Shown: positions 10,901 through 58,840 of the stretch, piece after piece
Position numbering within the stretch: position 1 is the stretch's first letter
Layout: each line of letters starts with the position of its first letter
Assembly: GCA_036172245.1 (NCBI GenBank)
Contig: JAYWIR010000004.1
Coordinates: forward strand, 5,580,001 to 5,644,000
DNA length: 64,000 nt
Source: Raillietiella orientalis
Lineage: Eukaryota
Direction of reading: 5' to 3'
Notes under the pieces: model-generated
The model's input: the letters and a program-made list of their open reading frames with translations, nothing else
Told to the model about the DNA's origin: nothing
Database searches by the model: none
Made by a program: the position numbers and the translations under genes

Positions 10901-13900
10901 CGATAATCTGCCGCGATTTCTTTAATATAAAATTATCGAAACATGCTGTGAGTCCATTCAGAATCCTATCAAACGCCATCATGGCTCAGGACATTCGCGC
11001 TCACAACTTTCCATTCTCCTAGAATTATGTGGAATGAAACGAGAATGTTCCAGGGAACTTTAGGCGCTGGCTTGGAGCACTCCAAGTTTCGAAATCACAA
11101 ATATATTATCGTTCCAGGCTGACGAATCGACTTGGGAACATGTACAAATTTCGTATACGGGGTGCTGTACGGTTCACGTTGACGAGCTTCCTGCTGAAGT
11201 CCGCAGCATAGCGAACAAATGGCACCTTCCAGTGCGTAATACAACACCTCCTGAGGACTCCATCAAAGCAAAAGAAAAATGCCACTGATTGCGGGGGGGG
11301 GGGGGCACCACACGCCCTAATATAAATTATAGGAAGTCCCTGGGAAGCACGGAAATTCTGACTTCTCACGACTGCCCATGAAACCAGCATAAAATATTTT
11401 CGGCGTCCAGATTGGCTCAGAAGGGAATGTATTACTGGTCATAACACACTGTCCGGATTAAGGTGGAGAGAGAGAGAGAAAAAATCATTCCTGATTTGCT
11501 GATTGCAATGAATTGCTAAGATATCAACCCAGAAATCGTTACACCAAAAAAATACACTCCTGAGAGACAGAAAGCACCACAATGTCATTGCATCTGGTGG
11601 CTTTTGGAGTGCTCGGCTTTAGGTTGTCCGGTGAAAACTTTGAAAGCAAGATGTGACAACAAAAAATTTATCCAAATCGAAATTCCACTCTTATTACTTG
11701 GACTCATTTAGTTGAGGCTCATAAAGTGAAGCATCATCTAAGTAGCTGACCAACACAGAATAAGCAATGCAACGTTCCTTGGATTCGAATGCACATTCAA
11801 ATGATCAAATAAAACTTTGCTCTGAGTACTGAAGCTGCAATGTAGATCAGGAGAGCGGCAGATACTTCTCGATTGGTATTACCTAATGTTTCCGTGTTGC
11901 CTGCACGTCAGCTTTCCTCGAATTGCAGTCAGATCCAAGACGACCACGAAATCATTTTGTCACGTGGCAATCCAACTTTCCTTTATTGCTCCTTCTGAAG
12001 TGATCTCCCCTAATATCCGTGAAATTTCTTAGCTGCCGACCTTAGGTCAGTCCTAGCACACCATAAGGAGAGAAAAAGTTTTTTTCCAGTCAACATACCA
12101 TTCCTTTTTTTTTTTCTTCCCCACCTGACCTATGAGAAAAGGACATCTGAAGCGCAAAGTGCTGAATGCAATAAGGGCCATTCTGCGGCTGTTTCTCTCC
12201 CGGGACGAGCCAAACCAACGACGCGGAAACTGCCTGTTCGGCTATTTGCGATGACACTGTGAAATTCCACATTTCACATGGAAAGTTGATGACGATGCCC
12301 CCGGCATCGTGCAGCAAGGCCTTGTTTGCACGAGTCGGGGTCTCCCAACGTACCGCAAACAGCGCAATGCCGTCCTGACTTGCAGGCGTGTCACTTGCGT
12401 GCTGGGTAGGCACGCAATTGGGCTCAAAACAAGTAATTTGACAAGTACGGGCCGAAGACAAGCTACAGGATACCCACATTGGAATGATGCAGAAATGGTA
12501 TTTGAAAAAAATCAGAAATAAATTTCTGGACAAGAAATGCTGTATAGTGAACCATCAAAAAAAAAAGCACTATGAAACTTTTAAAACGATACCATGCTTC
12601 CGGTTAGTACAATAACACACGCCATGTGTTCACAGGAACATAAAAAAACTTCTGGAAATTCGGAGAAAATCGGAAAAGTGCTACATGAAGAAACAACGAA
12701 CAATCTCACAGGAAAACTCACATCGACAAATTCATACCTGAAAAATAAATCAAGTGGTTTACTTATTGTTCATAAATTTTTTCCAATATATTCCGACCAG
12801 AAATGAGCAATAACCGCGTATGCTGAGAATGTGAAAAAACATCATGAAGCGTCAAAAGTTTCAACTACAGGTTATCCAAAAATCAGCAATACACCAGAGC
12901 AGTAAACATCAAAAGCTGATATACTAATGTTGATAATCTTTACGATCTTGTACATGATTGATATGTACTTATACTTTTAAGCATACTTTATAATCGGAAC
13001 AAACGTTTCAATACGCTGTACAAAAAAAAATACGTTTCACTCCCTAACAGTCCAAAGTCTAGCATGTAATGTAGTTCAAAACAATAACACAGAAACTCAA
13101 TAGCTTCAATTTGAGCAGTATGGTGCGATTTCTATGTATGTATGTACACATAGAATTCAGACAGCTTTCCTGCATTTCAGAATGTTCCAACCATTATTTA
13201 CCTTTAACTGAAAGCCAGTTGATTATTTACGATTATTTCAGTAAGTCTTGCCTTCAGTCTATGCTTTTAAGGATACATATGGAAAAACATGTTCAAATGT
13301 AATGTCGCTCATGCTTATTTTGGATAGGACGTCATGGTACCAAGGTAGCCTTAAACATATCTCTAATTTATATTACTTTAACTGTTTACATCAGTTTTTC
13401 TCAGGAAGATCACAAGGTATTTCACTACCACTGGAACTTTAAAATTTCCTATTGAATAACAGATTCAAATTTAAGTTTGATAATCTTTTCAAAAATGAAC
13501 TTTCCAAAAAAAGAAAAATCAAGTGTACCAAATAATTTTTATTAACTTACTTGTTACAACAGCAATTCATACTACTTATAATCAATTCCAGGCGTAGTAA
13601 GCAAATTATCATTATATTTGGTGTGTTCTAAACCCAAAAAACTTACTACAACAAATCTCATTAAAAAAATTGCTTATTGCGGAATTCAGCAACTTCAGAA
13701 AAATACAAGTCATTAGCTTACTGTATACATTATCAAAAAGTATAATGAATAAATATAAATAATCTTTGTGCTAACCCATTCCGACCCACCTGCAAAAACA
13801 AAAATGCACACACACAAAAAAACAGAATCTCCAAAGAAATGCATATTTATCAGGGCTTTTTAATAGGTTTTTGGAAAATTGCGCATACAGACAAAAGGAA

Positions 13901-14044
13901 TCACTAGTGTTGGGTGCTGAATGCAGAAACCACTATGTTGTACGCCTTTCATTTTTTTATTACTGTTGGTCATTTCCACAAGATGCTGAGAAATCACACA
14001 CATGATGGAACTGCATGCAACATTGTGTCGTGCCCTTTCTTTCC

Positions 14045-17000
14045 TCAATCACAGTTATAGTCCATAAGTTGGCTAGCAACTGAGCTTGATCCTAGCATGA
14101 TCCTGCAAAAAAAAGAAGCAATGTGGTCCAAGCAGAGGAGGGCAGATGGCAGAGGCCGGGGCCACACTGACTTACATGCACCTGCTGGGCATGTCACATG
14201 ATTACACACCTGCAGTAGAGAAAGTGATCAGAAATAAAGGGATGGTAGGTGCAGGTAAGAGAAAGCCCCGGACCAAATAAGAATATGCAAACCTTTCTTG
14301 AGACTGTAATCCTGAAGATTCATTAGCTGTGCCATCCTGTATATCTGCATCTTCCTCGGCATCCAAAGTGAGGCGACACACTGGACATGTGGCATGCTGA
14401 CATCATACATAAGCAATTCACTGTTAGTTACTACCCACCATTTCCAACCATGGAACAATACAGTGGCCATGATACTGATGTTCACACTGCAGCTGACGTA
14501 CTTCCTCATCATAGTGAAATTCTTCAATACAAATAGGACACATTACACCTCGATCAACTTGTTCTTTAGTTATCTGTAAGCGGGGAATCTGTTCAATTTT
14601 TTGCTGCGTCATAGGCAGTGGTCCTGCTACATCCACTTGATTAATCAGCTGCATCGTGACATTATCTAAAGTGCCTTCAAGCACATAATTTCCCAGGATC
14701 CGACGAACAATGCTACAAAAAATAAATATGGAATGATCAGAATAGAATTTGACCTTACACTGGGAACACATCCACCCGCTGAGTGCCAGCTCGACCTGAT
14801 GCCAACTGTTGAGTAAACTGTTGTAACAATGGCTGCAGTTGCTCTAACAAGGTGGTGTCTAAAGAAGCAGGCCAATTATGGATCAATACTGAATGCCTTC
14901 GGGACCTCTGGCTACCTGGCACCTGACCAGCATCTTCAGATCCATCATTCCCTTGTCTCAGAGCTGTTTCCTGTAAACACAACAGAAATAAAACTCTAAA
15001 AAATGTAATTTCAAAACAAATCATACTTTATTCTAGTGACAAAATAAATAACAGACAAAATCTTTGAGCTTCATTTCAAGAAAAAAAAAAAAAAAAAAAG
15101 TAATGAAAAAAATTACAGGGAAATGTTTTTTTCTTTAAATGAGCATCTCTAGCATTCTGCATTCTAAGTAACAACAACACTTGAACTTTAAACGAATTCC
15201 ATAGAAATCAAACTGAAAATCCTATGCACATGTAATTGACTTCTGACCTCTGCTGTAAAAAAGCAAAATGCATAAGCGTTAAAAAAAATCCTTAAAAAAC
15301 TGCAGCAAACAAGACAGACGAATTTTTTACATCAGTAATCACGGTGTAAATTAAGCAAAGCAAACACACTACTAATGGTCTACAGCTTGTAGTAACTTTA
15401 CATCCAGTTTTCAATGTCAGTGATGACTATATTTCGAGAATATTGTGTTTGTAAACAAATTGAAAAAAAAAGAAAAAGAAAACCAAAGAAAACGACCTTC
15501 AGAAAACTTAGTCAATTGTTTCAGATGCATCATTCTCAAGTCATTCCTAGTAACATAGCAAAAGCATACATGAAGATGATTTGAGACACTTACATCAAAG
15601 TACAATGACAAAACAACATTCTTCATGAATCATTGAAAAACCTGGCACAAATACTACACTCTGGAAGGTTAACTCAATTTGGCGAAATCATAAAATATGG
15701 ATAGTGTTACAGATTAATGGAAAATTAGCTAAACCTGATGAAGCAAACGATTAAAAACACTCAGTGAAACAATAAAAGAATGGTAGAATCAATAACACGG
15801 AGCTTGTAAGTAAAATGCAATCGGAAGATAGAAAAATATTTACTGGCAAAGCTAAGCCCATAATAATACACAATTATTGTGAAATTTCAGAAGCATAAAA
15901 CATCATTGCAGATTGCTAACATTTCAACACGAATGATTTATAGCACCAAGTTTAAATGTTTTCCTATAACTCTGAATGATTAAGTATGAAACAAATAATG
16001 GAAAACTTCACTGATGTGAATTAGCAAACTTTCAGTGGGAAACCATAATCATATTTTATACATGATATACACAAAATTTGAACTTGTGCTTCAGCTTTGC
16101 AATAAAAATTGATTCTTTTAGTGCAGTTTCAGTTATTTTTCTATGAAGGAGCACAAATGAACTGAGTTATCAATATGACTGAAAATCTAATGAAAATTAT
16201 CGTCCTAAAATTGATGTCTCCCAGGCTTGATATTTGTCAAAAAATATGAGCAACTTCAAGCTTGCATTGGCACCTTTTTATTTGTCAATACAAAAAACAT
16301 GATAGAATTAACATACCTCAGAATGAGAACTCCGGTTGGAATATTGGCTACCACGATTGGAAAGTTCCTCGATAAAGCCTAAACTGCATACTGGACATAT
16401 AAAATCCTGAAATTATAAACACCATTAATACATTCACATGAAAGGCATTTTCATTACTTGTATTTCAGACTTTACTAACCTTAGTTACATGCAAGAATTC
16501 CAAAATATTTTTAACTGATCTAAGTTAATTAATACAATACTAGAAAGAGGTGCTGCAAAGTATTTTTATAAAACTAAAGGAAGCTTGGTTCTTGAAGAAC
16601 AGTGAAATCCTTAATTTTCATAAAAATGAACACAGTTTATTTAAGCATTCAAACACATGCAGTTATCTACATGATAAAACACTTAAACTAAACCATAATC
16701 AAGCCATGAAAAAAGTCATCATTGTTTAAAACCTTTAACCACCCAACTTAAACAGGAACTTCAAAAGATAAACCAGCAAAATTTGGACAAGAAAGTAATA
16801 AAGAAAAGGTGACCCAAATTTTTAGGCAATGAGATTTTTATACATCTTCAGTCTATACACATACATTTGTAATTTATAAAAATAAAATCCCATATGGAGC
16901 AAATAATACCGTGTGCATTCGATATAGTCAGCTTTGCTGGAATTAAAATTTTAAAACTGTTGCCTTTATAAAATGTTGATTGTATTGAAATGAATAGTTG

Positions 17001-20000
17001 AAAAAAAAAAAAAATTTTGGATAATTAAATAAAAGGAACCAAATTGTTGAACAGTAACAGGAATTTTTATAATCAAATGAACAAATTAAGTGACATTACA
17101 AAAGTAAAAATAATGATACTGTATGGTAAACGATGGTGATACGATATAAAATTTTATTTCAACTTCTTCATGATTGCTTTTTCCCATACTGTTCTCAGGA
17201 GAACAGTGTCAGGAACAGGAAGGCAGGCATTTTCTGACCACTCAATAGCTAAATTGAATGTATCAATAACTTTGCTGACATCGAATTTTTGAATGTAGTA
17301 ACTCTCATCTAAATTTTCTTCCACATGCTCCATAGGAGCATTCATAATGGTATCCAGATCATGAACATGCTTTAATTCATTTTCTCCTTCCGCCCATTCC
17401 ATAATCTCAGTCATTTGCTACATTTTCTCTTATTATGTAATTGAATCGTGTTGCAATGGATATATAATCTTCATCAGTAAAATAGCCAATTGGTAAATTC
17501 AACTCAATTTCTTCAGCTGATGAATACAAATGCCTAAAAGCATTTACAATAACGCTCTTTGGAATGAATGTTGATTGATTAATTAATGAGTTTCTCTTAT
17601 TTTTTCCCATCTTTAACGTGGTAGAAAAAGTTTTTTATTGAATGACAGAAAACTTGAAATGTTAATTATATCAATGGTGTCTTATATCAAAAGTTTCTTT
17701 TATCAAAAGTGACTAAATTGAGTGTACACTGTACCATGCTTCAATCATACCTACAAATTATTAAGAATGTCATTTCCTTATTGGCAATCATCTTAAATTA
17801 CTCTTTCAGCTACAGGTAATGTTGAGATACTTCTCCAATATGAATTTCAAAACAAAATTTAGTTTGTTGAGCTTTGCCATAAGGAACTCTTAAAATCAAT
17901 AGACCTGACAAGCTTATCATAATGAAATGTCATTCTACTGAATAACCATTATGGTAATTAAAGGCTATTTTGCGATATCTTTTAAAGAAAATTACCTTAA
18001 AATTGAGTAGAATCTTATTTGCTGAGAAGTACAAATAAATGAATCACATGATAAAACACAACGTGGTTCTCAAATGAAAAACCAGAAACCAGGAATTATG
18101 ATTAATAAATTACGATATTATAGATCTATAAAACAAAAAACTTGAAGGGATTTTCTCAACTTAAAATGTGCAAGCAACTTAAAAGGCATTATAATTATAT
18201 AAGGCACAAACCAATCTATTTTAACACAGTCAGTAAGAGTGCACACATGTATCTCAACAGCCAACCAGGTGGAAAACAAAATGCAACAAAAAGAGATATG
18301 GTAAAAGATATGGTGACCTGTAAACTGTATCATTAGAACAGCAAAAGATAAAAACTTACCATAAGCATTATTCAGTTTACAAAATTCCAAAAGAAAAGAA
18401 AAAACACACATACACACGGTACACAGAAACATGAAAAGCATAATTCAGAAAACCTTTAAAGAGTTCAATAATTTATTTGATACAAACAATATAAGACAAA
18501 CTACTTCTTATTCCAGCACAAAAGATGCTAAACCATAACTCTCCGAAAGTTAACAATAAGACACATAATTACTTAAGAACTAATCTTTGACTTTCATTAT
18601 TGCATAAACTAACTTCAGCATTAAAATTCACGCCTGATGACAGAAGCAAAGTAATGCAATTTAACATATTCAATGTTTAACAGTGATTGCTTTAAATTTA
18701 GGACGAATCTATTTATTGTTTATTAATCCATTATTATCAGCTTCTATAAGTTATCCATTACAAAGTAATGGCAATTAAATTACTCTGCTGTTCAATACCT
18801 GATAAATTCTTGACCAGAAAATTACAATTATTAAACATAATTAACACTGGAAAAACAAAACTTATTTGTTCCACCTGTGAAGAAAACGGGTTAAACAAAT
18901 TGTAAAACAGGTTAAACTCGTTAAACAAATTTGCAAATGATTCTCTAATGCGGATTTGGACATTTACTTTTTGGTTACTTTAAGATTGCAACTGAAAGTG
19001 GTTCCACCAAAACCATTAGTATTTTATTGCTTATTGCAAAATTTTTAGCTACATAACAATACTGTTTGAAAACAGTACGCATGATACACAATTTGATGCC
19101 AAATATATTCAAATGCTTTAATGATTTCATTGATTCTTATCTCTGCAAAATAAAGACCACGATGTTTTAAATACATTGAATGACGAAGCTTGCAGAAAAA
19201 ATGGGCAGTGGATTAAAATGGAAACCAAATCAAGACCATGACAACTGAAAACCTAAAGTTTGGCTCAAGATCTGTCAGATAAATTTATCTGAGGAAACTA
19301 GGTGAACACAAATGGTTCGAGTTTCAGTTATTCAAGGCAAGAAAAATAAATGAAATGGCTTTGAAAAGCATAGTTTGCACAATAATGAAGAATCAGTATA
19401 GCTTCAGCCACTTAACATTAATCTGACCTTTTTTAAATTCCCTGGTTCTTCACAACTATTACTATTTTGATTTGCATTACTCAAAATTTTAACAGAAAGT
19501 TACCAAATTTACACATACTTAACAACACTCAGCATTTGTTTTCCTTTATAAAAATTTAAGCACTCTTATTACTTATACTGAATTAATGAATTACTTCTGA
19601 AACAGAACTAACTGATTTCCTGGTCACACTTTACTGTTTTCACACCCATGAACCTTTGTTATTTTCTAATTGAATCCATCAGATTTTTTTGCTCATTCTT
19701 TATACCCCATTATGCCATGTTTAAATATACCCAGTTACATGCAAAAAGGATTTTATACATTTTGAACCTCATTCCACCTTCTGGGTTCTCTACGAATTCT
19801 ATACGTCCATTTTCTGTTTACATTGCTTCCTAAACAATGCATACAGAATTTCTTTGTTTTAAGTTTTAAAACAATGACACACAAACTAAATTGTAGTTCT
19901 TAACACATATTCATGAAAAACTTAGCCTTTATAGTTCTTAAAACTGACACTATTTATAATTTTCAATAAACTGTTATTAACAGATTCTGTGTGCAGAAGA

Positions 20001-21110
20001 TGAATTAATAATTGGATATCATAACCATTTTCAGAACACTTATGACTTTTTTCAGTTTGATTTTTGCAACTGATTCAGAATCTTTGTCTTACTAATACAA
20101 ATCTGCCACAAAAGAAATCCTGCAAATAAAACAAATAAATTTTTTTTGTAAACAGAGTATGTAGCAACAGGCATAATGGTAAAGAAAAAATAGATAGATA
20201 AAGTGGCATGTGTAGATGACAAAAAAAATCATTCTACACTGAAACCCACTCCTGCCTCAAACCATGGCAGTGCATTTCCAATACTGTGATAATTTGCTCA
20301 TTTACTAAATCATACATAAATGATACAACTTTACTTTAATAACTAAGAACACATACATAACTTGCTTGTAAATTAACAATCATTTTGAGAAACAATTAAC
20401 CAATCAAAGATCATCACCAGAAAAACAAACATTCATAAAATAGGAAAGCAATATACCTCCTGATATAAAAATTAATCCAATTATGAGTACTAAATGCATC
20501 ATAAATGTACCATCAGTCATTAGTGAATTTCATTTTTCTAAACAAGATGTAATGAAAAGTATTAACATAAAACTACAATTGATGATAACAGTTCATTAAA
20601 ATTCTCTGATTGATTATTATTGAAAACTCCTTTTCAAAAAACAAACTACGATTTGAAATTCTGAAAGAACAAAGCAAATACACAGCACTACCACTAGCTA
20701 GTACATTCCCTCTGTATTTCGCCACTTTTAAATTAGCATGTGAATATCTGATATTATATTTATTTTCAATGCTGTTATGGTTTAAAACAAACATTCCACA
20801 TGCTGTTTTCAACCATGACAGCGCTGAAAATAACTGTGATAAACTAATTCAAGGATTATACCTTCTTACATGACACGATGACAGAAAACTGATCACAGCA
20901 ATCGTAAAATTCAGTAACTGTCACAAGAATTATAAAGCAGGAACAAACACGTACTCAAGAAAACCATGATACTACACATACTTAAACGTGAAAATGTACA
21001 ATAACACGGATAAACAAAATACTTACAGGTAAGACTGGAGAAATTTCTCTGCTGCACTTGTGGCAATAATACCTAGATAAAGATATGGTTTCTACTGCTG
21101 CTTCAGCCAT
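14045..21110 (-). CDS. RNF126: E3 ubiquitin ligase of the RNF126/RNF115 family (N-terminal C2C2 zinc finger, C-terminal RING-H2); alternative last exons
   Basis: Exons 21110-21027 (MAEAAVETISLSRYYCHKCSREISPVLP), 16406-16317 (DFICPVCSLGFIEEL...), 14970-14759, 14712-14439 and 14396-14293, then one of 14209-14194, 14102-14045 or 13789-13771. RING-H2 CPICIEEF...[26 protein letters not shown]. All junctions GT-AG and in phase. Which last exon dominates cannot be told from DNA; RNF126 vs RNF115 orthology is unresolved. Confidence 0.92.
16909..17731 (-). mobile_element. Internally deleted pogo/Tigger-like (Tc1-mariner superfamily) DNA transposon in intron 1 of the RING gene
   Basis: Degenerate terminal inverted repeats (CCGTGTGCATTCGATATAGTCA vs CAGTGTACACTCAATTTAGTCA, 17/22 match), each flanked by TA. 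Inside, minus ORFs 17610-17407 (MGKNKRNSL...VIVNAFRHL) and 17414-17154 (...IMEWAEGE...FNLAIEWSE...LLRTVWEKAIMKK) resemble the N- and C-terminal ends of jerky/Tigger transposases without the DDE core. Confidence 0.7.
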
Positions 21111-21451
21111 ACTAAGAATTTTGAAGAGAAAACATATAAACTGCTTTACAAAGGAAAATCAGTGCTACTTAGCAATTCGTGGCAGCCATAATAAAAGTGA
21201 ATCGTAATTTCAAGATTGCGTCGGAATTGCTAAACGAGCGAACAGTATATACTTCGGATTTCTTGCATTAATATTAACATCAAAATCTGGGTCATAAAAC
21301 AAACTTCGAAACCTTCAAAATCTTAGTTTCGTATTAACAATCTGTCAACTGAAATTTCTAATTGTCACGGAGTTTGTGAACAATAAGCAATATCCGATAT
21401 AATATATAAAAAGCAATATCGATTCAATGCAACGATAGTGCTAATTTGAAA

Positions 21452-25670: not shown

Positions 25671-28505
25671 TTAGGTTTCATTAAGTTTTGTGATTTCAGT
25701 AGGAACACCGTAACGTCTGCGCAATTTCTCTTGTATTAGAAGTCCACGAATCAATCGTTTCCACCGGCCATATATAATTTTTTCCTGCTTTTCTTTTTCC
25801 CTATTCATTTTCTCGTTCTGCTCTTCATTATAGGCATCAAGCAGCACTTCCCGGAACTGCTCACACACAATCCATCCTCCAATAATGGGATGAGTACTGC
25901 CACCGTGGATATCAAAACCTGTAACTGCTGGAGCACAGTCAATATTTAGTTTCTTGGCCACACGACATAAGCCAGGTTTATCAATGAATGTTGTTCCAAC
26001 AGGCAGCATGCATGGTTTGAAAAAATCCACATTTCCATACTGATTACGAGGTACAATACCTCCTTTTGCAACAGGAGGTTTGTAAGGTTCAGTCTGCCAT
26101 AATCCAAACAAATCTAGGGGCAAATTCTTCTCAACTTGCCCAGTCAGCTTAGAAGAAGGAAGTCAAGAGAAGTATATGGCTTTCTACATACTCTGATATA
26201 GCGTGGACGAGAACAAACTGTCTTATATGCTTGTTCTCCAATTTTAACTACACGAGCTTCACGCAACCATGTTTCTCTTGAATGAAGTTTATGAACAGTA
26301 TCCCGAGAATACACTGCTTCTCCCTTTATGTACCCAATAGGTGGTGCAGTTGGTGGATAAATTGCCTCAAACTTCAAAAGATGTCTTGGCAACACATATA
26401 GTGGGTGGCCTTTATACCTTGACAGCAAATAATTGTCCACTTTAGCTATCCACTTACTGAGACACTGCTGTTGGTAATGGTCGCTGGCCTAATTCCAACT
26501 CCAACTGCTTGTCTTCTGTTTGAGTATGCTTGGTGTGGGGTTCCTGGATACTGTAAAGGGCATGTTTAAGCCAGTGATGATCCACAGACTCCACACGAAG
26601 TTTTCTTGTGGTTGTAAGCCATTGTGTTGCATATCGATGAGTTACATCTTTAACTTTATTATTATTATTAAAAGCCATGACATACAATAATGGATGTGTT
26701 GCTCCAGACTAAATGAAAATAGAACCAAGTCCAGTTAGGTCCTACCTCAAGCTCTGAGACACAGTGAATCTTTCCTGTGGTCACGTCTACAGACAGCCAC
26801 TGCTCCTCCTCTTCCACATATACCTCAGCCCAGATGTCCAACCTTTCTTTGGAATGTTTAGATTTAGAATTCTTTTTTGCAAGAGTTGCATTATCTGAAG
26901 ATTGCAGATTACTACTGAATTAGCAATAGATGTATCACCAGTGCGTGGATAATGCGTTTTCTCTGGACTGGCATCTGGACTAATCACTAGCCTCTGGCGT
27001 TTGGTTCTGGTATTACTTCTCGTACAAATAGCCACAATCTTGGGCTCAAAGTCATCTGAACTAGATGAATTCCTCCTTTCTGTCAACTTAGATGAATCTA
27101 CATTCTTTCCAGCATTTGAATTTCTGAGCCTATCAGTTGCTGACATTTTTGGAACATTTAGTGGAACTTCTAGTTTATTGGAGATGTTACTCTTTGAATC
27201 CTTTCTTAATGATATGGATTTATCCTTTTTAGAAGTGGATGTAGCACATTTCTGTTGGCTAGGAGTATCTTTGGCTTTTGAAGCACCAGCAGTATCTTTT
27301 CTAAGGGGTTCTGGCTTGAGTGGCAACACTTGTAGAGATACAACAAGGCGTACTGAAATACCAAGGGCACGAGCAATCAATACAAACAGTAGTACTTTTT
27401 CTTCAAGTGTCTGCACTTTACTATTGACCAGAGCACTCATTAATACTTTTTTTATGGAATAATCCTCTGACACTGCTGCATAGTTACAGGTGCTGCATCT
27501 CAGATGATTCCCAGATTGTAAAATGGATTTTACACAACAAGTTTTACCACTGACTGCCAAAGGATAATGTGGTTTGTCCAACTGAGACTCCACACGATAT
27601 TTCTTGTGAAGGAACGTGCACAGATTACTCACATACTCTGTTTTTACTCTTTTGTGGGGATAGCAGTGTTCAGAGGGTAATGTAGATAATCCCATGGCAA
27701 GGAGATCAGGGTCATTTAATTGTTTGTTGAGGTATAAGTTGTGGGTCAGAAGAACTAGCAAGCTTACTTTGTGAAGGTGCTCCTGCTGTATTTTGCGAAA
27801 ACTTCTCATCTTACGCAACAGAAAAGCTTCTAAAATTTCCTGATCAGTCTTGTGTTTCTTTTTCTTCCTACCTAGTTCTTCAGGTAATGCATTGAGTACT
27901 ATTTCAACATTTGTAGTTGTTGTAAGATTCTGCTGATTAGATACTTCCTCCCACTCATCTTCATCTGTTGAATTTTCATGCATGTTTTGAGATTTGGTTA
28001 CTGTGGGTAGACGATCTAGGTAAGCTTCTCCCAACAATAATAATTGATCAACATTCATTTGTTCAATATCCCCTGCATCATTATTTGTTTTCAAGTTTGC
28101 TGATTTATCTCCTAATTTGCACAGTTCAGCATGCTGTTTATTCTCATATGTTTTAGACTGGGGAATTCTGATGTTTGCATTTGTGTTCTGTTTTGGCAGT
28201 TCACTATGAATTAGAGTTTTTGACTTTTTGTAATCTTGAGATCCAGCAAAATTCGATTTGTTCATGGCTGTTTGTTGGCAAGCTGCACTGTTTTTGCCTG
28301 CTTGTTGTTTAAATGTTTCACGAGACAATACTTTGCTCATTCGTTTGTTGCTTGGGCTCTTCGTCTTCTCATCATTTCTTTGCTGTCTCACCGATTTTCT
28401 GGTTTTTACTGAGGCAGTCTTCTTAACGATTTTGCTTGCAGATGAGCTGGAAACTGAAATTTTACCTTTCTCTTTCTTACGTTCCCTTTTTTTATTTTTT
28501 GCCAT
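25671..28505 (-). CDS. XPC: DNA repair protein XPC / Rad4 homologue, 5 coding exons, 889 aa
   Basis: Exons 28505-26939, 26894-26746, 26708-26458, 26417-26192, 26147-25671 (2670 nt, in frame; upstream in-frame TAA supports this ATG). Motifs: [126 protein letters not shown]. Minus-strand AATAAA at 25391-25386. Confidence 0.97.
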
Positions 28506-29499
28506 TATTTTCGAGTGTTTAAATTATTTTTCCCGCACTGGCTGTACCTACACAACTGTTTCAATGCTTCTGCAGTCAGCGAAAAGCATTTTACACATAA
28601 CATACTCCAAAACCTTTTGTTCGAACATTACGAATGGTGACCGTTTAGCGATCCTCAAAATTCCTGACATTTCAGATTTCACCTTTTCTTTCCAAAGGCT
28701 GCACTCTTGCTTGGGTCACCAGCAAATACGCCTCAGAACGCACTGGCACGCGTTGCGGCGATCTTTCCAAGGTCCAAGAGCTCCTGTGACCGCACAGCAC
28801 GAGGATTCTGGAAAATGAAATGACTCTCCTCGTTAGCAAGGAGCAGAACGGAAGAAAGAGAGACTCTGGGAGCACATCTAATTCAGTGGAATCCTAGTGC
28901 TTTTGCTTAGCATCACATGGCCTGGTTATCGATTCAAATAAGCTTAACTGTCAACAATCTACATGGACATAAAAGATAGATGCATTCCAACTTCACGGTA
29001 ATTCCTGGGCAAATGCAGGTGGTTTAAGCCACATTTGTGTTTCAACATGGTACGTGCACGCATGGAAACATGTACACTATCAGTAAAACAGAGCTCAACT
29101 CGCATTCAATGAAACCTAGCAGTGGGCGTACATGTACACCATATGTACGAACTATTAGGAAATGTGGAGCAGACATGAACTGCTAACTCTACTACAGATA
29201 ATCGCTGATTTGTCACATTTTGATATGCAGACTTTCGTATGCGTGCAAAAGTCTTAGGTATAGTCTCTAAGCAAAAGATGCAATTTCGTGCGGATGAGTA
29301 GTGTACGATAACCACCATAATGCTCTCATCTTGGAGCTGTTGTATGGAATCGATTTAAGATGAGATGCTGCCTCTAGCGTCCCTTCTGTTTGATCACTTT
29401 GGAGCTCTTAGCCTCCTTTTGTTCTGATTCTCCTCTGACTTTTAAGCCATTCTTTTGTTTGATTACCAGGTTTATGCGTGCTACACAAATGAAGTATTA

Positions 29500-46772: not shown

Positions 46773-48859
46773 AATCTCAGTTATCACACGGATGTCTCAT
46801 CTCAAATTTATAATATTACAACTCCTCAGTTCGCTGTTTTTTCCCCAGTCTTGGAGCTGCAAATAGAAGAGCAGAAATTCCACGCGGTCATGTCAGTTCT
46901 TTGTGGGATCTTCACAGAGATATTAGTAGATTCTCTCTGTTGAACAAATTGTGCAAGTCAGAGTACACAGATCCCCAAAATGATTCTTTAGAGAAGAGAT
47001 GGGAATCTTCCGATCTCGATGCCTGGTGTTTTATTATACGCGATATTGGACTCTCACTCGATTCATCATGGCTGGAACATATTTACACCAGGAGGTGACA
47101 TCCCTGAATTTGTTCCGACCACAAATGCTTCCTCTGTTCATCCTGCATATTTTTTTCCTCCCTGTTAATGACATATCGACTCAAAGGGAGCCTTAACATA
47201 CTTGGCATTTCAAAAGTGGTTCTGCAGTATTGGAAACAGCATGGCACATTGCCTAGAAACAGTTCAAAGAAATGACATGCTACCCAAATTGACGAATCCT
47301 CATGTCCTTACATTTTGTTGGGCCTCTGTATAAATGCATTTCTAGCTTGATAGATCAAATTTATAAACATTGAATTTAAGAAACCGGGGCAATTCCCCTC
47401 AAGTAACAAGGAAAAAGGACGTTTTCTTCTCGAATGCGTCCTTTCTTTAATTTCCCAAAGTATTTTATGTGTTAACATGCCCCAAACTGAAAGCATGGCA
47501 CCACGTCCACCCTTGCCCCATTCGTACTGGAACTGCAAATCGTGGAGATGCTTCTTCTTGCGTCAAGATCTCCACTTGCTCGGAACTGTCTTTTCTGCAC
47601 TCCTTTCGAAATGCCTCTCATCTGCATTATCTTTGTACTGACCGAATTCACACACGAAAATAGTTTACACCCTATATTCAAATTACATTTCATATACTGA
47701 GAACGAAATCACGACCACAGATGACACGATGCAGGATGGTTGATTCGGATTCATTTTGAGGCGCACTTTCACTTTCTGGAACGGCGGCGCTTCATTATTT
47801 TCCGATGAGCACCTTTATGAGAAGGATCAGAAAAAGCCAAGTTTTCGATTTTCTGAAAAAAGTGGGTTGCCGCAGATTCAGCGACCACGAAAGGCCCTAT
47901 TAGCTGGGATTAGGCTTTTGCTTCGTTTCTATGAGTCATCTAAACGACCGAGGTGGGTCGACACTTTTCCAACAAACGAAATGGAACGACGGGCGATTCT
48001 ATTGACACCAGAACTTCTGTCGTCAACCCTCTATTCCGAACGGAACATACTTCCAGTAGAGAAAATATTCACGAGATCGCAAGTGCCGGCCTTCAGATAC
48101 TGCATTTTCACTTTCGGTTCGTTTTATCTACGGACACGCAGGCCTGCCATGCGACCTCAGCGGCATCGCCGCAGAGTTGACCGAAGAGCACGAGCTTCTG
48201 GTTACGGTTTACTCGGACAACGGAAACAAAATCGAATCCAAATGCGTGCATTCCGCACAGTTTAAAAAAATCGCCATCAACGAATGCAATGAAGAAGTTT
48301 GCGAAAGAGTGAAAAGGTTCCCCTCCCCTCCCCTCTCATTGAAACTTTTCATTTCTAAAAAATTCCAGCCATCTATTGAAAATCTTATTGGCAGCAACTG
48401 CTGATTCAGTATTTAAGATTCGTCCCAGATCGAAAAGATTTTGGATCGTCACCTACGAAAGGGCGAACCACCTGTCTACAAGTAGTGAGAAGCGCTTGCT
48501 GATTATGGGGCAGTGGGTTCGAGTCTCAGAACTCCCAGTAGCAGAGAGAGAACGAAACGGATTTGTGGCGCACGCGTTTCGACGTCGAACATGCATCGAA
48601 TGACGTGCAGGACAAAGCGAAACCACACAGAAGAGAGGCACAAGAAATGCAGGATGCAAAGGCAAGTATGCTGACTGCTTGAAGAGCGAAACAAAGCAGC
48701 GATCCACGAGGCGAAAATGACAAATTCAGCAACGGGAAGAAGCTGGCTGTTCTCGCGATCCTTTTCCATCTCCAGGAGGTAAGCAGCATTTCAGGAACAT
48801 TGGGAATTCATTCTCGCCAAACTGTAGGAACAAACGTGAACCACAAAGGACTAAAGCAA

Positions 48860-49760
48860 ACAAGGAATCTCCTTTGCATCCACGTACACGTTAAGTGCAC
48901 GGATGGAATGTCGTCAGGTACTTGGAGTTGTCTGGAGACTTCCAGAGGGTAGGCAGGAATCTTGTGGGACCATCGCGCGCAGGTCGGTTCCCGACCCGAA
49001 TGTGCAACGCAGCAAGCCCCTTTGAGCAAGGGGACCAGTCTCGGACACGGTCCAGTAGACATTAGGGGTTCGTGGCATCCTCCCCAGGAACATTCTCTTA
49101 AGGTGTTAACTTCACGAAAGTAAAGCAGAAAGATCGCGCTTCCTCTTCAGATCGCAACGGAATGCCAATTCTTTTTTCCGAGGTGGTGATTAAGGCTGCA
49201 GCGATCCCCAGGCACACCCGGTAGGGAGAACACAAAGTATCCATCCATCTGCCACTTTGCTTTCTTCATCGGTCTGAGGAACGCCGCATCCTACTTATCT
49301 GACTTCAGGGAGTTTTCAGGAACCCCTGCAATCCTTTAAACCATTCCGAATCTCTGAGGTGATTAGGCTATGACGAGAACACCAACCCTGCTGTGATGGG
49401 ACGTACTCAAGCAGGTCAACCGTGCTGCCGAGGATTTCATCACAGCCACCACGATCCCAGTGACCGGAAAGGGTCGGGTCTTCCAGAGATCTGGAAGATC
49501 CCAAAGTGATGATGCGCTTCAACGCAGGACCCAAGATGTGAGTTTCGACAAGAAGCGAGCCCCTGAGATGCTGGGAGATCTTGGAAACCTGCCGGGCATC
49601 CTTCATGAAACGCTGCACCCGTTTCCGGAAGAGTGTGTGGAACACGTCGTGCTGGGTAGTCTGCGTCCCAGTCTGACGGGAAGCCGTTCTTCTTCAGGCT
49701 GGCTTCCTGGAAGCGGGTACGTCTGCAGCAGTATCGCACGCACTGTGGCGCGAGCAGTCC
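48860..49760 (-). mobile_element. Decayed ORF1 (gag-like nucleic-acid-binding protein) of an I/Nimb/Jockey-group non-LTR retrotransposon
   Basis: Minus-strand translation VSKISQHLRGSLLVETH...LKRIITLG...DLLEYVPSQQG matches the recalled ORF1 pattern (K-LRSGDLLVET...LL.L...L..QGV). Downstream remnants PTCAR and VYVDAKEI fit a broken CCHC-knuckle region. Many stops and frameshifts. Confidence 0.55.
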
Positions 49761-50188
49761 CGTGAGAACTCACGCGGACTTCTGCAGAGCTGAGCGGCAC
49801 GGAAAAAAACCCTCAAGACCTCGGAATCGGGTTGCTCTCCGAAGAAGAAAGGTCTCCCGTTACGCGGCCACCGAAATCGACGAAAAAAAGGGCCCCCCCA
49901 TCCACCTGGGAACTTGTGGCTCAGGCCCCGTCTATCACCATGCAAGGCTGTGGCCCACATCCTTGCTGCGTTCACGAGCGACAGAGTGGTAGCCCACTCA
50001 CGTCCAGGTGAAGAAATCCACAGGAGGTTCGCCAAGCACGCAAGGACAGTTCGCTCGGCGGCTCACGAAGCTCTTCAATACCTGTCTGCTCCACTCGAGG
50101 GGGAGTGTCACTCTCCAAGTCATAGGGGATACCTCGGGAGTGGTCCATCCTATGAATCCAGGAAGGGCTCGGAGTTCGTTCCTCTCTC

Positions 50189-50570
50189 ACCTGGAAGAGA
50201 ACACCGAAGGGAACCGACCCTCCACCCTGGTTGTCTCCGAAGGGAATCTCCTTCCCTAATCTCTCCAGAGGGACCCCCTGGAGAAGGTCACTTCATTATT
50301 TCTTCTCCGGAGGGCACCCGCGAGGGAACCGCTCCGTTTGCTCCTCCTCCGAAGAGAACCCCGAAGGGAAGTTTTCAAATTTCTCTGAAGGGCGCTCTCC
50401 GAAGGGAGCAGCGCCCTTCTCTGGAGAGGTACCAATCCACCAGCTCCATGGTACGAGATGGAGTGTCCCCTTCCTAGGAAGGGGGAGGGCGGGAGGCTCC
50501 ATTTGCACAACCGGTGGGGAACCCCGAAGGGAGCCTTCTCTTCCTTGATTCCCGGAAGGAGCCCGGAGGA
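50189..50570 (-). repeat. Degenerate array of ~9 copies of a (CT)CCGAAGGGAACC motif, mostly as dimers, ~28-45 bp period with one longer gap
   Basis: Unit starts near 50189, 50234, 50262, 50304, 50346, 50382, 50418, 50509, 50549; intact CCGAAG at 50204, 50237, 50349, 50361, 50399, 50524. Confidence 0.75.
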
Positions 50571-50628
50571 TCGACTTCCGAATCCCAAACACTCAACGGG
50601 AGCTCCGTTTTGGGGAGGGGAGGGGGGG

Positions 50629-50695
50629 GGGGATTCGAAACCCTACGGCGCGCCCATTTCTCTGGCATCGATCCTCTACGTGGGGATTCGAACCC
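50629..50695 (-). promoter_or_regulatory. Two tRNA T-arm/B-box-like motifs (possible Pol III internal promoter or SINE-like head)
   Basis: Minus strand reads GTGGGTTCGAATCCCCAC (core 50695-50682) and GGGTTTCGAATCCCC (50643-50629). No complete cloverleaf is visible. Confidence 0.5.
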
Positions 50696-52464
50696 ACAAC
50701 GCTTGGTGCCAGGCGCGGAGACTGCAGCCGCACGCGGACAGGTTTGGTTCTTTCTGATGCAGCCGAGAAAAGAATTCGACGTCGGAGCTCAAAGGCACTC
50801 GCTTCGAGCTCTGCTGGACAGGATATCTAGATCTGTGAGTGAGATCTTGTAGGTAGCGAGGAAGGCCCGACGGGGAGTTCTATTTCGGGATCACTGGGCA
50901 CCTACTCGATTTTGTGTTTCCATCGAACCGGAAGTGTAAAAGAAGAGAAAGAGCTCGAGTGAACAGACCGAGTACAAGCAACGGGCACGACTGAGATGAG
51001 AGGGGGAGGGGGGGATGTGTTTCTCCCGCCTCCCTTCCCATCCCGGTGGACGACCCCAGAGACGTCTCGAAGCCTCTCTTCGAAGCGGGATGTCATGTCG
51101 CGCCCCCGATCGCAGCGCCGTGCTGCGTGCGCAGATTAGTCGCAGCGAGGTGCGAGGCCGAGGGCGGCAGAAACAACAGCCGAGCCCCCCCCCGCGCCCA
51201 TCCGGTTCCTGCGGATAGCCTCCAGGTGATCCCACTTGGGAAGCCATCAAGAGGAGCACGCCGGCATCTTGCAAAGGATGCAGAAGACCCATCTTCTTGA
51301 ACTGTGATCCCTTCTCCTGCGCTCCCCCCCCTTTTTTTTCTTTTTTTTCCAAAACAGCATTCCTCTCCCCCTCCCTCCTCGTTTCCCTTCATGGCTGCTG
51401 TGGACTTAGTCGGAGTCCTCTTGGGTTGAACTGACTCGTCCCACCGACTCTTTTCTGTTTATTTTTTTAACAAATAAACAGAAAAGAGTTAAACGTCCCG
51501 GAGCACCAGGGTGAGAAAGGAAACGAAAAAAAAAAAAAAAATAGTCAGTGAAAGCAGAAATGACGGGGGAGGGGGATCGGGAGGCGATTGCGGAAGTGTT
51601 CTCGTTGTCGGGAGAACTGAGCGAGCAGGACCGCTTCGCCTGGGGAAAGTCATCAGGATCGTCCAGGTGAGGCATCCCTCTCGTTTCAAAGCGATTAATC
51701 GCGTTGACGTCCTTCGGGAAGCTGGGTATACATGAATTTAACCAGCAGCTGGCCATCGGCTTTATGTCGGGAGAAATTCTTACGCTGCGAGCATTTGATC
51801 CGCCGGACGACGCAAATAGCGGTTGTAGGAGCACTGCCGGAGGGCAGTGTCGTTGCACCCTCTGGGATGTTCCTGACTCGGACGGTTCTGTGCGGTTCCG
51901 TTCCATTCTTGCTACTGTCTGAGAGAAATCCTGCACAATAGCGAGACAGAGAGAGGGAAGGGGAAAGGGAGGAGGAGGAAACTCTCCTACTTGTAAGGAA
52001 ATTATGGTACGAAAACGGCGGAACAAACCCCAAAGTCATGCAAACAAGAAAAGTGAATCGATAACTTTACAGTTGCTGCAGTGTCATGTAAATAGGGATG
52101 GCCTTTGTATCTGAGACAATAAATAGGCTGTATTTGCATTTTCATGGAAGGACGGATTATGGTCCTCAAAGGAGGAATCGGTGTGAATGATCACGAATCG
52201 ACTAAAGCAGTCGCAAATGAAAGCATCGTGAGGCGAATGAAAGCAGGATGTCCTTATCGAGCCAGCACGAAGCAATAGGGAAACTACAGGCTCATAGAAA
52301 AGTAGGGCAACCTGAAAGGGTTGGGATTTAAGTCTGCTGATTTCCACAATGGAGCGCTAGAATGCAGCTTATTGGGGCGATCAAATCGTGCTGATCAAAA
52401 TGGCTCGATAAAAAAAAAAAAGGAGAACATCGGGTTCGCTTCATCGCAGAAAGACAAAAAAACA

Positions 52465-52492
52465 ACACACACACACACACACACACACACAC
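52465..52492 (+). repeat. (CA)n microsatellite
   Basis: Direct reading. Confidence 0.9.
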
Positions 52493-53379
52493 GAAATGGC
52501 CAGGCCATTTCCTCTCGGGCGAGTCGTTGCTCGATCTGGCAAGAACAGAAGACGGAGAGCGGCAGAAACCAACGCGCTCACAGCGATGGCTGCCCTCTCT
52601 CGGGGAAATTTTGCTGGTGGTGGTACACGGCTTTTTTCTCTTCCGAGTCGGGACAATGCAGGCGTCCCCCCCTACGCGGGGGTGCGAGAACACGTACCTA
52701 CGAAATATGTCTCCATTGCTTCCCGCACGCAGGCGGACGACCTGCTCGCTCGCTCGTTAGGGCACGGGGACGCGCACCGGTGCGTGCATCACGCGCAACA
52801 AGCGCGCTGTGGAAGCACAGGTGCTCACCGAAAGCGTAACTTTTCGACGCTGTGCTCATTCTTGATTCTTCGGTTTGAGTTCTCTCCCGTTCTCGATCCA
52901 GAAAAGGGGAGCTTCCGGGAAAGCAAAGAGCTTTCCGTCCCGGTTCCTAGAAGACCAGTGCATCTCAGGCTGGATGGCCGTTCTTCACGATTAGAGCAAC
53001 CGGTTCGTAACTTAAAGCACTTCCGAAGGAGTACCTTTCTCTTCTCGATGCCTGGAAAGTGGTGCGCACCTGCGATGGAGATTGTGCTCTCGACAGTTCC
53101 ATAAAGAGTTCGTCGTCTCTTCCGGAGTGATGGTTACGTCAAGTTTCTCTATATTCAGGCTGCTTCTTACGTGCAAGTTTGCTTTACAAGGCATGCAGAG
53201 ATGCGGCACAAGCAAGCTACAGTCATGTCGGAAGGGAAGAGAACAGAGCTCCCTTCGAAAAGCTCAGAAATTTTCGCTCTCCAAATAGAAATTTTGTTGT
53301 TTGCTGATGCCTATCCAGTTCCGTGACTTTGGAAGCTGGCAAGGATCCTGGCCAGCTTCCAACGTCGCGAAACTGGACA

Positions 53380-53660
53380 GGCATCTAAGATGCGGTACCT
53401 TCCGAGGGGAAGGGGAAGCAAAACTTGATGCCAGATGACAACTCTCCTGTGGTCTTTCCATGAACGACGCGGAAGTCGTCTGGCTTCCGTCTTTTCCACA
53501 GAACCATTTTTCAGCTGTTTGGCCGCAACGTTCCGTTCCTGGGAACCTTCCAATGAGTTTTTATCGAATCCGAGCAAGGATAATTCACAGTACCACCGCT
53601 GACTGCTTCTGCGAGATGGGGAATTTGTGATAGACACGAGAGCAATGCACTGTACAATCA
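53380..53660 (-). mobile_element. Decayed C-terminal end of an RTE-clade LINE ORF
   Basis: Minus ORF reads LKNGSVEKTEARRLPRRSWKDH, matching the RTE terminal motif G.VEG.R.RGRPR..W.D. Confidence 0.55.
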
Positions 53661-56611
53661 TAGAGAGCTACAAAGAAAGAATTCAGACGTAACTGTTGGC
53701 ATTCTGTGCTCTTTCCGTTGGATCAACAAGAATGTGATGAACAGGACCACAATGGAAAATCAATGGAAACTTCGGTCACGTCGAGGCTTTTCCTCTTGAG
53801 GAATCATCGAAAACGCTTCGACACATGAGGTACGGATGGTTAGCACCTACTGTGTTAGATTTTTGTCTCTTTAGAGTTCAAATTGACAAGACAGTGCCGC
53901 GTGTCCAAGCGCCCGAAACAGGAGCAACGCGACCTCGTCCTGAACGTAATGCAGCCGGGGAAGATGACAGGTTTTCGGAATGGCAGGAAAGCAGTTCATG
54001 CCCCCAGAGATCGAATCCCGGAAAATACGGATTTTCAGATAACAGTGGAAGGTTATTGAAAAATGGAAGGGTGCTTGAGGAGCTATGGAAGAGGCAAGAA
54101 TGAGAACAACGAGAAGTGCTCGAGAATTTTCCCAGCGCCATGAGTTTCCATCGAAAGATGAGGCATCTCAATTTTCCCAGAGGATGATTTCGCGAGTGCC
54201 ATATCACAAGCCCATCATTTCTGCGAGGTGCAATGAAGATGCTGCTGAATTCAAGGATGCGATTATTGAGCTCTGGGAAAAGGAAAGCACGAATGGTAAC
54301 ATGGAAACGATAGTTTCAGTAAAGAAGGAAGGCCTTAATGGTGGATGGATTCAAATGAGGCTAACCTCGGGAGCAGAAGATAAGGAGGGAAGCTCATGAC
54401 ACCGTTTCCAAAAATTCGAACCTCAGAGTGCACAGTTAGCCAAGAGAGAGGATGCAAACGCGATGGAAAAGATGGGTTGCTGCGTGGTGAATTCTCTTTT
54501 ACTTTCGAAAGTCTAGTGATTCTTGACTGGTTCCAATGCGCACGAGCCGGATTATGATACCAAGGTTTTTTTTACCATTTCTCAATCGAATCCATTCATA
54601 CAAAAGAAGTCTTGAGGAACTCGGTGGCTGCTGCGAGCTGAGGTCACCCGAGATGTATGATCAGGTAAAATATTCTTGCAGAAGGAGAAAAAAGTAATGT
54701 CTTAAGTGGAATAGGATGTGTTTTCTTTGCTTCTGCTGCCGCCGCAGCAAAGCCGTGCCGAATCGAAAAATAGCACATTCATGTGAGTAGATCAGGTGTG
54801 TGTCGTGATTTCTCAATCTTGGATCCTATCGAAAGTTTTTCTGAAACCCTGCCCTTTTGTGTCAACAGCCATTCCAGCAGCAGAGGTCGTTCTTTGCACG
54901 TTTTCCTTAGTGGAAAGGCCTTGCTCAACTTGTCTTCGATGGTAGTGGAGGCATCAGCGCGAAATGCTCATTACTGAGACTTTTTCCCAAAGGTGTTTGG
55001 CCACACCATACTCTCATTTGCTAAATAAATATTCCCATTTCTCATCACATCAAGTATTCAGGAAAGAGGAAACCAAGATCTTCGGAAAGGCTCTCAGGAT
55101 GAAAAGAGGTCGATCTTCACAGGAAAGACTGGATTGGAACAGTATGGGATCCCCGTTCCTAACGCGCGTACTAGTGAATTGTGATTTCACCATTCTATCC
55201 TTTTCCGCGATATTCTTTCGCAGTTGCTGTTGTGATTTTGCTATTCAAAAGTCAGAAACACAAGAGGGGATGCACAGAGCAGTTTCATAGAATCTTTATA
55301 AATTGAGTGCGCTCGTGATCATTCCCGATCTACGCAGAGCAGTGGTGAGAACCATTCAAAATAGCTCCCTCAAAGTCTCTCCTTCCTGATTTCACAGTGC
55401 CTCAATGCCTAGGGATTATCCGCGCAACTTTTCCTCAAATGTACCGGTAGTTTTCCAGGGGACTGGTCATCGAGGTTCTCTTAAGATCCGCGCAAAAAAA
55501 TTCATCCAAGTGTACCGCAGATGCACAGGAAGCAGAACAATTATCGGGAAAGTCACCTCCATCGCTGTAAAAGCAAAAACATGGCTGCTCTATTTTACTG
55601 CAAGGGAAAAGCTTTAGCAGACTGTGCTCTGGATTTGGCTCGCTGTTGGCTCTGAGATGATTAAGGAATCATCTCAGAACACTGAGATCAGCATTTATTC
55701 TTCTATGAATCATCAGAGCCAAATTAAGACTGTCCAAGGTCTTTGCTCAGAGCAGCAAAATCTGAAAATACTTGATCGAATAATGATGTTTTGCCATCAG
55801 TTTGATCGCATCAGGTTTAGAGCAAAAAACAACGGCACCCCACAATTCATTCGGCGAGCTCTTTTATTTATTTATTGATGGATTTTTTTTTCTTGAAAAA
55901 ATTCAATTTTTATCAGTTTATGGTGCCCTCACTCAGGATCTTTCTCATGTCAGGGGAGTTGACTGAATAGTTGCCGGCCTCCACACGAACGGCAAACCCA
56001 AGTCCTGGATGCGAAGGTTATTCAAGCAGCCTCTTGTTTCTTCAAGGATTCATCAACCTTAGTCCGTGTTGAAGTCGGACAGGGACGCTCTTCTGGACTA
56101 GAAGACCAGTGTTCTAGTCCTGAAAATTACCGGCCATCAAACATCAGACAACAATCCATTCTTTGAAGTCAGGTGAGGTCAGGTGACTGAGCGAAGGAGG
56201 GGATGGCTAAGCTCAAGTCGCTCTGTTCGAAGCTGCGCAAGACAAGCTGTTTCGCATCCTTTGCCGGCATCCCTGAAAATTCTGACGCTCCAGGCAGATG
56301 GGGCAGTGTCCCATCCAGGATTCCACTTCTCCACAAGGAGAGCTTGCATTCCCGAATTGTGGGCCTCCGGGCTTGGAAGAAACGGATGAGGTCTCGTATC
56401 TCTTGAAGAGGAACAATTGACCCAGAGTAAGTACTGCTGCGTGAGGAACGCGGAAAAGCAGGGAGGGAGGGAAAAGAAAAAATGGAGCAGTGTACGGACA
56501 CCCTTCCCGAGTCCACAGTCTCCTTCCTGCCGTCAGCGGCTTGGTCTTCCGAGTTGCGCTCCTGAGCTCGTTTCGCTACCCTGGCATTTGGCTTCCGGTC
56601 TATGACCGTGG

Positions 56612-56656
56612 TCGAGGTTGATGACGTGAACATCGAGGTTGATGACGTGAACATCG
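56612..56656. repeat. Exact 21-bp tandem duplication
   Basis: tcgaggttgatgacgtgaaca twice (56612-56632, 56633-56653) plus tcg. Confidence 0.95.
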
Positions 56657-58659: not shown

Positions 58660-58840
58660 CATTGTCGTCGGATTTGTTCACACGCACGTGAGGCTTTCTC
58701 ATTGTTGCCTCGCCTCACTCACAAGCATCCGTGTCTTCGGCATTGTTGCCTCATCCTATTCACGTGCACCTGCGAATTCCTCCTCATTGTTGCCTCGCCT
58801 TGCACATGAGCCCCATGCCTTCGGCATTGTTGCCTGATCC
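58660..58840. repeat. ~41-bp minisatellite with alternating A/B units (core CATTGTTGCCT)
   Basis: Core at 58660 (degenerate), 58700, 58741, 58785, 58825. Units at 58700/58785 share cattgttgcctcgcct...cttcgg; units at 58741/58825 share cattgttgcct(c/g)atcc. Confidence 0.85.

Follow-up and report, generated by a model that had tools for sequence, protein, structure and literature searches.

A stretch of 64,000 nucleotides from Raillietiella orientalis (contig JAYWIR010000004.1, positions 5,580,001 to 5,644,000 of the forward strand; referred to here as the window and numbered from its first letter) carries on its minus strand a gene of six exons, which runs from 21181 to about 13851 and has a product of 259 amino acids. 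The product is an E3 ligase of the RING type, and the coding sequence of its mRNA ends in codons for Cys-Val-Ile-Met (CVIM), a CaaX box, followed directly by a stop. An initial annotation, made from the letters alone, had described the gene as an RNF126/115-type ligase to which an exon of 34 nt appends this box, and had suggested that splicing could switch the ligase between cytosol and membranes. When checked against the sequence, all the letters and coordinates that it gave at the site were correct.

Gene structure and the 3′ end in RNA

RNA evidence was taken from one public metatranscriptomic RNA-seq run (share of sampled words 0.23), the contigs of which were aligned to positions 12500-21400. 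One contig of 1192 nt aligned in six collinear pieces, the joints between which skip 4620, 1346, 46, 42 and 83 nt and all have GT..AG ends on the minus strand. A chimeric or unspliced contig is ruled out by the six collinear pieces and the five canonical introns.

Exon 1 (21027..21181) contains the 5′ untranslated region (UTR), the ATG at 21110-21108 and the start of a zinc ribbon (translation MAEAAVE...); the contig piece at 21026-21181 covers it together with its joint to exon 2. The second half of the zinc ribbon is encoded by exon 2 (16317..16406), which is likewise a contig piece and is flanked by the joints that skip 4620 and 1346 nt. Exon 3 (14759..14970) encodes a linker region, and exon 4 (14439..14712), between the introns of 46 and 42 nt, encodes a conserved middle motif and most of a RING-H2 domain; both are again pieces of the contig. 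Exon 5 (14293..14396) supplies the end of the RING and an acidic linker, ...SGLQSQE, and closes in phase 2 with AG. The very short introns at 14397-14438 (42 nt) and 14713-14758 (46 nt) share the gene with introns of 1346 and 4620 nt, and in the 42-nt intron a pyrimidine tract is almost absent.

Joining the exons of the window at the contig coordinates gave a spliced frame of 259 amino acids, with six replacements relative to P0001, a protein of 259 residues predicted on the 1192-nt contig. P0001 was the only match among 41 candidates in a word-index protein search made with exon 4, with which it is 99% identical. The contig and the window differ in 30 letters and two single-base gaps (about 97% identity), so the two are not the same molecule, and the contig represents a different haplotype or a very close relative. 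Among the 21 differences that were listed individually, 16 are synonymous, three are non-synonymous and two lie in the 5′ UTR; this synonymous excess confirms the frame and indicates purifying selection on it.

The last codons of exon 5 are ...TCT CAA GAA AG, ending at 14293. They are followed by the donor GTTTGC and, 83 nt later, by the acceptor ctgatcactttctctactgcag (...ctctactgcag), which ends at 14210; the intron between them (14210..14292) has been spliced out of the RNA contig. Reading on from 14209, the sequence is G TGT GTA ATC ATG TGA, in which the four CaaX codons occupy 14208-14197 and the stop 14196-14194, and the last five residues are R-C-V-I-M. The C-terminus of P0001 is ...SGLQSQERCVIM, closing QSQERCVIM. 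Both the junction from 14293 to 14209 and the terminus ...SQER-CVIM, which the initial annotation had read from the DNA, are thus borne out in RNA, the former as the 83-nt skip and the latter in the contig and P0001.

The proposed size of the exon did not hold. The initial annotation had closed it after 34 nt with the consensus donor GTAAGT (14170..14175), but this one contig, which does use acceptor 14210, passes over donor 14175: from 14209 to 13851 it follows the genome collinearly, straight through GTAAGT, with one other letter and two one-base gaps. Being unbroken past 14175, the contig shows the 34 nt to be the opening part of a terminal exon (13851..14209) of at least 359 nt, which completes the Arg codon, encodes CVIM and the stop, and then becomes 3′ UTR.

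The ligase family and its C-termini

In Pfam, residues 12-43 matched Zn_ribbon_19 (PF14369; 32.6 bits against a cut-off of 30.8) and residues 186-228 matched zf-RING_2 (E 3.6e-13). An alignment of 52 sequences showed that C16, C19, C32 and C35 of the zinc ribbon are invariant or nearly so, that C205, H207, H210, C213, C224 and C227 of the RING-H2 are invariant and that Y138, D145, L151, G159, P161 and P162 of the middle motif are near-invariant. In an AlphaFold2 model based on this alignment, the predicted local distance difference test score (pLDDT) was 82-90 for the zinc ribbon and 92-98 for the RING-H2. With a limit of E <= 0.001, an exhaustive HMMER search returned 30876 proteins. Those of the best matches that fell in named clusters were RNF115-like or RNF126-B proteins of horseshoe crabs (Tachypleus and Limulus), a spider (Nephila), a mite (Leptotrombidium) and penaeid shrimps (Penaeus), and the neighbours in the ESM Atlas were RNF115 and Iruka clusters (score 0.96).

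Judged by these matches, the gene product is an RNF115/RNF126/Iruka-type RING-H2 E3 ligase, its zinc ribbon lying at the N-terminus and its RING-H2 at the C-terminus. The assignment made in the initial annotation is therefore upheld by the two Pfam domains and by the nearest named relatives, which are arthropod RNF115 and RNF126-B proteins. RNF126, RNF115 and Iruka are soluble cytosolic ligases, with roles that concern mislocalised membrane proteins (via BAG6), endosomal sorting and empty Argonaute; Rab7 is a further known partner of the family. The window ligase has the same domain order and conserved core as RNF115 (BCA2/Rabring7), RNF126 and Drosophila Iruka. However, it is short, at 259 amino acids, and its best full-length matches among the other representatives are 37-51% identical to it; moreover its mRNA ends in CVIM, whereas these relatives end in an acidic tail (invertebrates) or a Ser/Asn-rich one.

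A second strong acceptor lies at 14103|14102, 107 nt downstream of the proximal acceptor and inside the observed 3′ UTR. Its AG (14103..14104) follows a long T-rich tract (cttcttttttttgcag). Translation from this acceptor in the phase of exon 5 gives (R)IMLGSSSVASQLMDYNCD, which contains a Ser-rich stretch and ends ...MDYNCD, with the stop at 14047-14045; this coding segment (14045..14102, minus strand) is also within the open reading frame (ORF) 14045..14227. The C-termini of relatives are often short, acidic and hydrophobic, as in ...MDFEFD, ...MDLDYD, ...DFDLE and ...NDECD. The set used for comparing C-termini consisted of the 149 other family representatives returned, all of them at most about 50% identical. 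A hydrophobic residue (or Cys) followed by D or E closes 77 of these, and the strict pattern D-h-x-h-[DE]-end (h, hydrophobic) is found in 29. MDYNCD matches both patterns and, in an alignment with 40 relatives, falls level with their termini. As a control, all six frames of the window were examined and the strict motif was found right before only two of the 6010 stops, one of which is the distal tail site itself.

By this resemblance the distal segment is the ancestral last coding exon, still intact in the DNA and now lying in the 3′ UTR of the observed mRNA. Because the segment matches the acidic tail of the family, the CaaX end would displace an ancestral tail that remains intact.

Forms of the ligase that lack the tail are also found in database gene models, which are not experiments, of RNF126-B-like proteins from penaeid shrimps. 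In Penaeus chinensis, P. japonicus and P. indicus, the predicted isoform X2 (294 amino acids) has ...GPGPR as its end, whereas the form of 341 amino acids continues into the acidic tail (P0156 and P0157 versus P0008 and P0158). The stop in X2 comes 36 residues past CPVCR, compared with 32 in the window ligase. These models may be a precedent for tail-less isoforms, and such forms of the ligase may be widespread in crustaceans.

The terminus C-V-I-M-stop has cysteine at position -4, aliphatic residues at a1 and a2 and, at X, a residue that selects farnesyltransferase (FTase) or geranylgeranyltransferase I (GGTase-I). It is the C-terminus at the RNA level, as junction and stop are both present in the spliced contig and in the predicted protein P0001. 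CVIM is a textbook FTase substrate and, going by the tetrapeptide, the ligase is most likely farnesylated on Cys256, trimmed and methylated. The AlphaFold2 model places the box on a tail that is predicted to be flexible and exposed, residues 231-259 having pLDDT values of 54-68 and being without secondary structure.

According to the two-signal rule, a farnesyl group alone gives a weak association with endomembranes and not with the plasma membrane. K-Ras4B has the same CVIM tetrapeptide at its C-terminus, preceded there by a polybasic stretch, whereas in the window ligase the box is preceded by an acidic stretch without cysteine: about eight of the 30 residues ahead of it are acidic and one is basic. 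This agrees with the acidic tail and the lack of a polybasic second signal described in the initial annotation. As neither a polybasic nor a palmitoyl second signal is present, the hold of the ligase on endomembranes would be weak, which that annotation had suggested too. That the tetrapeptide works outside Ras follows from its modification on reporters: human FTase fully modified CVIM on GFP-Ras2 and Ydj1, and GGTase-I did so in its absence (PMC11152559), so that CVIM is a portable prenylation signal.

Proposed use of the two acceptors

We consider it fairly probable that a lineage-specific proximal acceptor has given rise to a ligase that lacks the tail and can be farnesylated, while the ancestral tail exon next to it probably remains in use. 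In the observed mRNA, exon 5 (14293, phase 2) is joined across 14210|14209 and the frame closes immediately as Arg-Cys-Val-Ile-Met-stop, the last exon beginning with the CVIM segment and continuing as a 3′ UTR of about 340 nt. The CaaX end would thus arise from an upstream 3′ splice site, specific to the lineage, that displaces the intact ancestral tail exon. If, as we infer, both acceptors are used, the choice between them would set the ratio of soluble, tail-bearing ligase to lipid-anchored, tail-less ligase. The splicing switch of the initial annotation accordingly has to be recast: as a cassette micro-exon it falls, but the idea survives as a choice between acceptors 14210 and 14103, the RNA showing the CVIM form only.

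The divergence between window and contig is uneven along the gene. In the terminal exon 1 of 357 letters differs (plus the two single-base gaps), compared with 29 of 837 in exons 1-5 (Fisher p 4e-4, or 0.01 when gaps are counted as differences). This low divergence fits constraint at the nucleotide level around a regulated splice choice.

A tentative extension of this reading is that an arthropod lineage has evolved a regulated choice of two 3′ splice sites 107 nt apart, giving either a soluble, acidic-tailed form or a farnesylated endomembrane form, the ratio of which would be set by a conserved hairpin at 14280-14150. An inverted repeat of 13 nt pairs 14259-14247, in the 83-nt intron, with 14183-14171, which holds the GTAAG of the unused donor, and a second inverted pair is formed by 14271-14265 and 14162-14156. 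Both the proximal acceptor and the CVIM codons lie within the predicted pre-mRNA hairpin (14150..14280, minus strand, 131 nt), in which GTAAGT is base-paired. The minimum free energy of this hairpin was -42.8 kcal/mol, against -31.8 +/- 3.6 kcal/mol for shuffled sequences (z -3.0; 1 of 200 shuffles was as good), for a region picked after the repeats had been seen. A wider region of 261 nt (14300-14040) folded no better than its shuffles (z 0.15), and Rfam, at the gathering threshold, found no RNA family within the 64-kb window. Since the 131-nt region was chosen afterwards and the wider fold was null, the hairpin should be read as a lead rather than as a result. If formed, it would hide GTAAGT and loop out the proximal acceptor, providing a way to tune the choice of acceptor.

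Several observations weigh against a farnesylatable form that arose at a lineage-specific acceptor. Cysteine is found at position -4 in two of the 149 relatives (CVGF and CRLQ); neither is canonical, and CVGF belongs to a multi-RING plant gene model of 745 amino acids. From the C-termini compared, the CaaX box is not a family trait. An orthologue above about 50% identity was not found in protein collections or in Joint Genome Institute (JGI) metagenomes. A short-fragment search of the protein collection with residues 170-259 gave no candidate, and so no fragment bearing the distal tail; 95 pattern matches were obtained in a JGI metagenome scan with exon 4, none of which was confirmed by tblastn, and an exact 30-nt pattern spanning the acceptor and CVIM had no match in metagenome contigs. 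Across the six frames of the window, a loose canonical CaaX stands just ahead of 8 of the 6010 stops (about 1 in 750). At that rate such an end is rare in any one gene, but in scanning many windows one would meet it now and then. RNA support comes from one assembled contig of one run, whose source organism is about 97% identical to the window. Contigs give no isoform proportions and drop rare variants, so isoform abundance is not readable from this one, and the lack of a 14293 to 14102 junction in it is uninformative either way. Finally, a haplotype mosaic in the contig could equally yield the low divergence of the terminal exon.

The main rival explanation is that the CaaX box is an accident. 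A new or leaky lineage-specific acceptor at 14210 would then truncate the protein, CVIM would be encoded by luck and the tail-bearing distal isoform would be the functional ligase; the CVIM form would be tolerated or mildly deleterious, with no selected membrane role even if prenylated. This is what might be expected of a box that is absent from 147 of the 149 relatives and non-canonical in the other two, that stands upstream of an intact ancestral tail exon and that has no orthologue above about 50% identity to show its conservation. CaaX-like ends do occur by chance, at the 8 stops mentioned above, and the site was picked from a very large scan. An accident nevertheless appears rather unlikely to us. 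CVIM is among the best FTase and GGTase-I substrates rather than a marginal one (PMC11152559), and the region is near-invariant between window and contig. A good pyrimidine tract precedes the proximal acceptor, and the CVIM form is the one that the assembler followed at the 3′ end of the sole transcript contig, so that it is not rare in that sample.

The two remaining explanations concern how the 3′ end is spliced. A 34-nt cassette exon (14209-14176), with the GTAAGT donor at 14175 spliced to 14102, would encode the same protein, as CVIM and the stop fall within it, and remove an intron of 73 nt from the 3′ UTR. In favour are the perfect donor core of GTAAGT and the strength of the distal acceptor; the stop would be only 18 nt ahead of the junction and, by the 50-55-nt rule, nonsense-mediated decay would not be expected. 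Against this, the sole RNA contig is collinear across 14175-14103 and GTAAGT is paired in the 13-nt inverted repeat of the predicted pre-mRNA fold, and we regard a cassette exon as improbable. Splicing in two steps, in a recursive-like manner, is more improbable still. When 14293 and 14209 are joined, the junction again has the form of a donor, AG|GTGTGT, from which splicing to 14102 could follow, so that the CVIM transcript would be an intermediate and the final protein would carry the ancestral tail. Although GTGTGT (14209-14204), directly after the proximal acceptor, is at least as strong as the original donor GTTTGC, the known cases of recursive splicing are in very long introns and the stretch here is only 190 nt. 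The contig, moreover, is free of its other introns and reaches a plausible 3′ end, and thus looks like a mature mRNA.

Comparable systems and the rest of the window

The p46/p42 pair of OAS1 arises from acceptor choice. In this pair, as in ZAP-L and ZAP-S, a single gene yields a soluble form and a prenylated one targeted to endomembranes; the two differ only at the extreme C-terminus, and only one of them has a CaaX box (PMC9041830 for OAS1, PMC12582503 for ZAP). The OAS1 and ZAP pairs are vertebrate antiviral sensors and not ligases, and both isoforms of each are documented, whereas for the window ligase the CaaX form alone has been seen in RNA. Components of ligases can also be prenylated: FBXL2 and FBXO10 are prenylated substrate receptors of SCF (Skp1-cullin-F-box) ligases, whose CaaX anchor puts ligase activity on particular membranes (PMC9988375; bioRxiv 10.1101/2024.04.16.589745). 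Both are F-box adaptors of multi-subunit ligases and are geranylgeranylated (FBXL2 is also palmitoylated) with a constitutive box; the window ligase, in contrast, is a single-chain RING ligase with a box of the farnesyl type and no second signal.

The principles of CaaX-bearing ligase components and of CaaX isoform pairs are known, then, and what is new is the RNF115/RNF126/Iruka family, in which they are not described. In the text returned by full-text literature searches a prenylated RNF126, RNF115 or Iruka was not reported, the few co-occurrences being incidental and in reviews. If the tentative reading of a hairpin-regulated acceptor choice is true, the ligase would be the first lipid-anchored member of this family and a compact case of a cytosolic ligase gaining a membrane form. 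A natural, farnesyl-anchored form would put ligase activity on the cytosolic face of endomembranes. A gain of four codons at a new acceptor would re-address an old enzyme, with the ancestral terminus kept in reserve. The reach of this is limited for now by RNA support from a single contig and by a box that is unconserved across the family.

Intron 1 of the ligase gene contains two adjoining open frames on the minus strand (17154-17634; 87 and 75 amino acids) with a protein-like composition, which are outside the coverage of the RNA contig. Pfam gave no family for eight further ORFs of the window, comprising these two, five from the GC-rich right end and one at 12090-12554.

The upstream neighbour of the ligase gene, at 25671-28523 on the minus strand, is an XPC/Rad4 DNA-repair gene, in which Pfam recognised exons for the Rad4 transglutaminase-like, BHD_1, BHD_2 and BHD_3 domains. 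It also has one long open exon of 578 amino acids without a Pfam match, and its best matches are from insects, a millipede and mites, at no more than 61% identity. Going by the matches of both genes, the DNA belongs to an arthropod-like animal of a sparsely sampled lineage that has no near relatives among the sequences searched. The G+C content of the window is 30-42% over the first 48 kb and rises to 44-59% over the remainder (48001-64000). This jump in composition may reflect an assembly join, a region rich in repeats or sequence of another kind.

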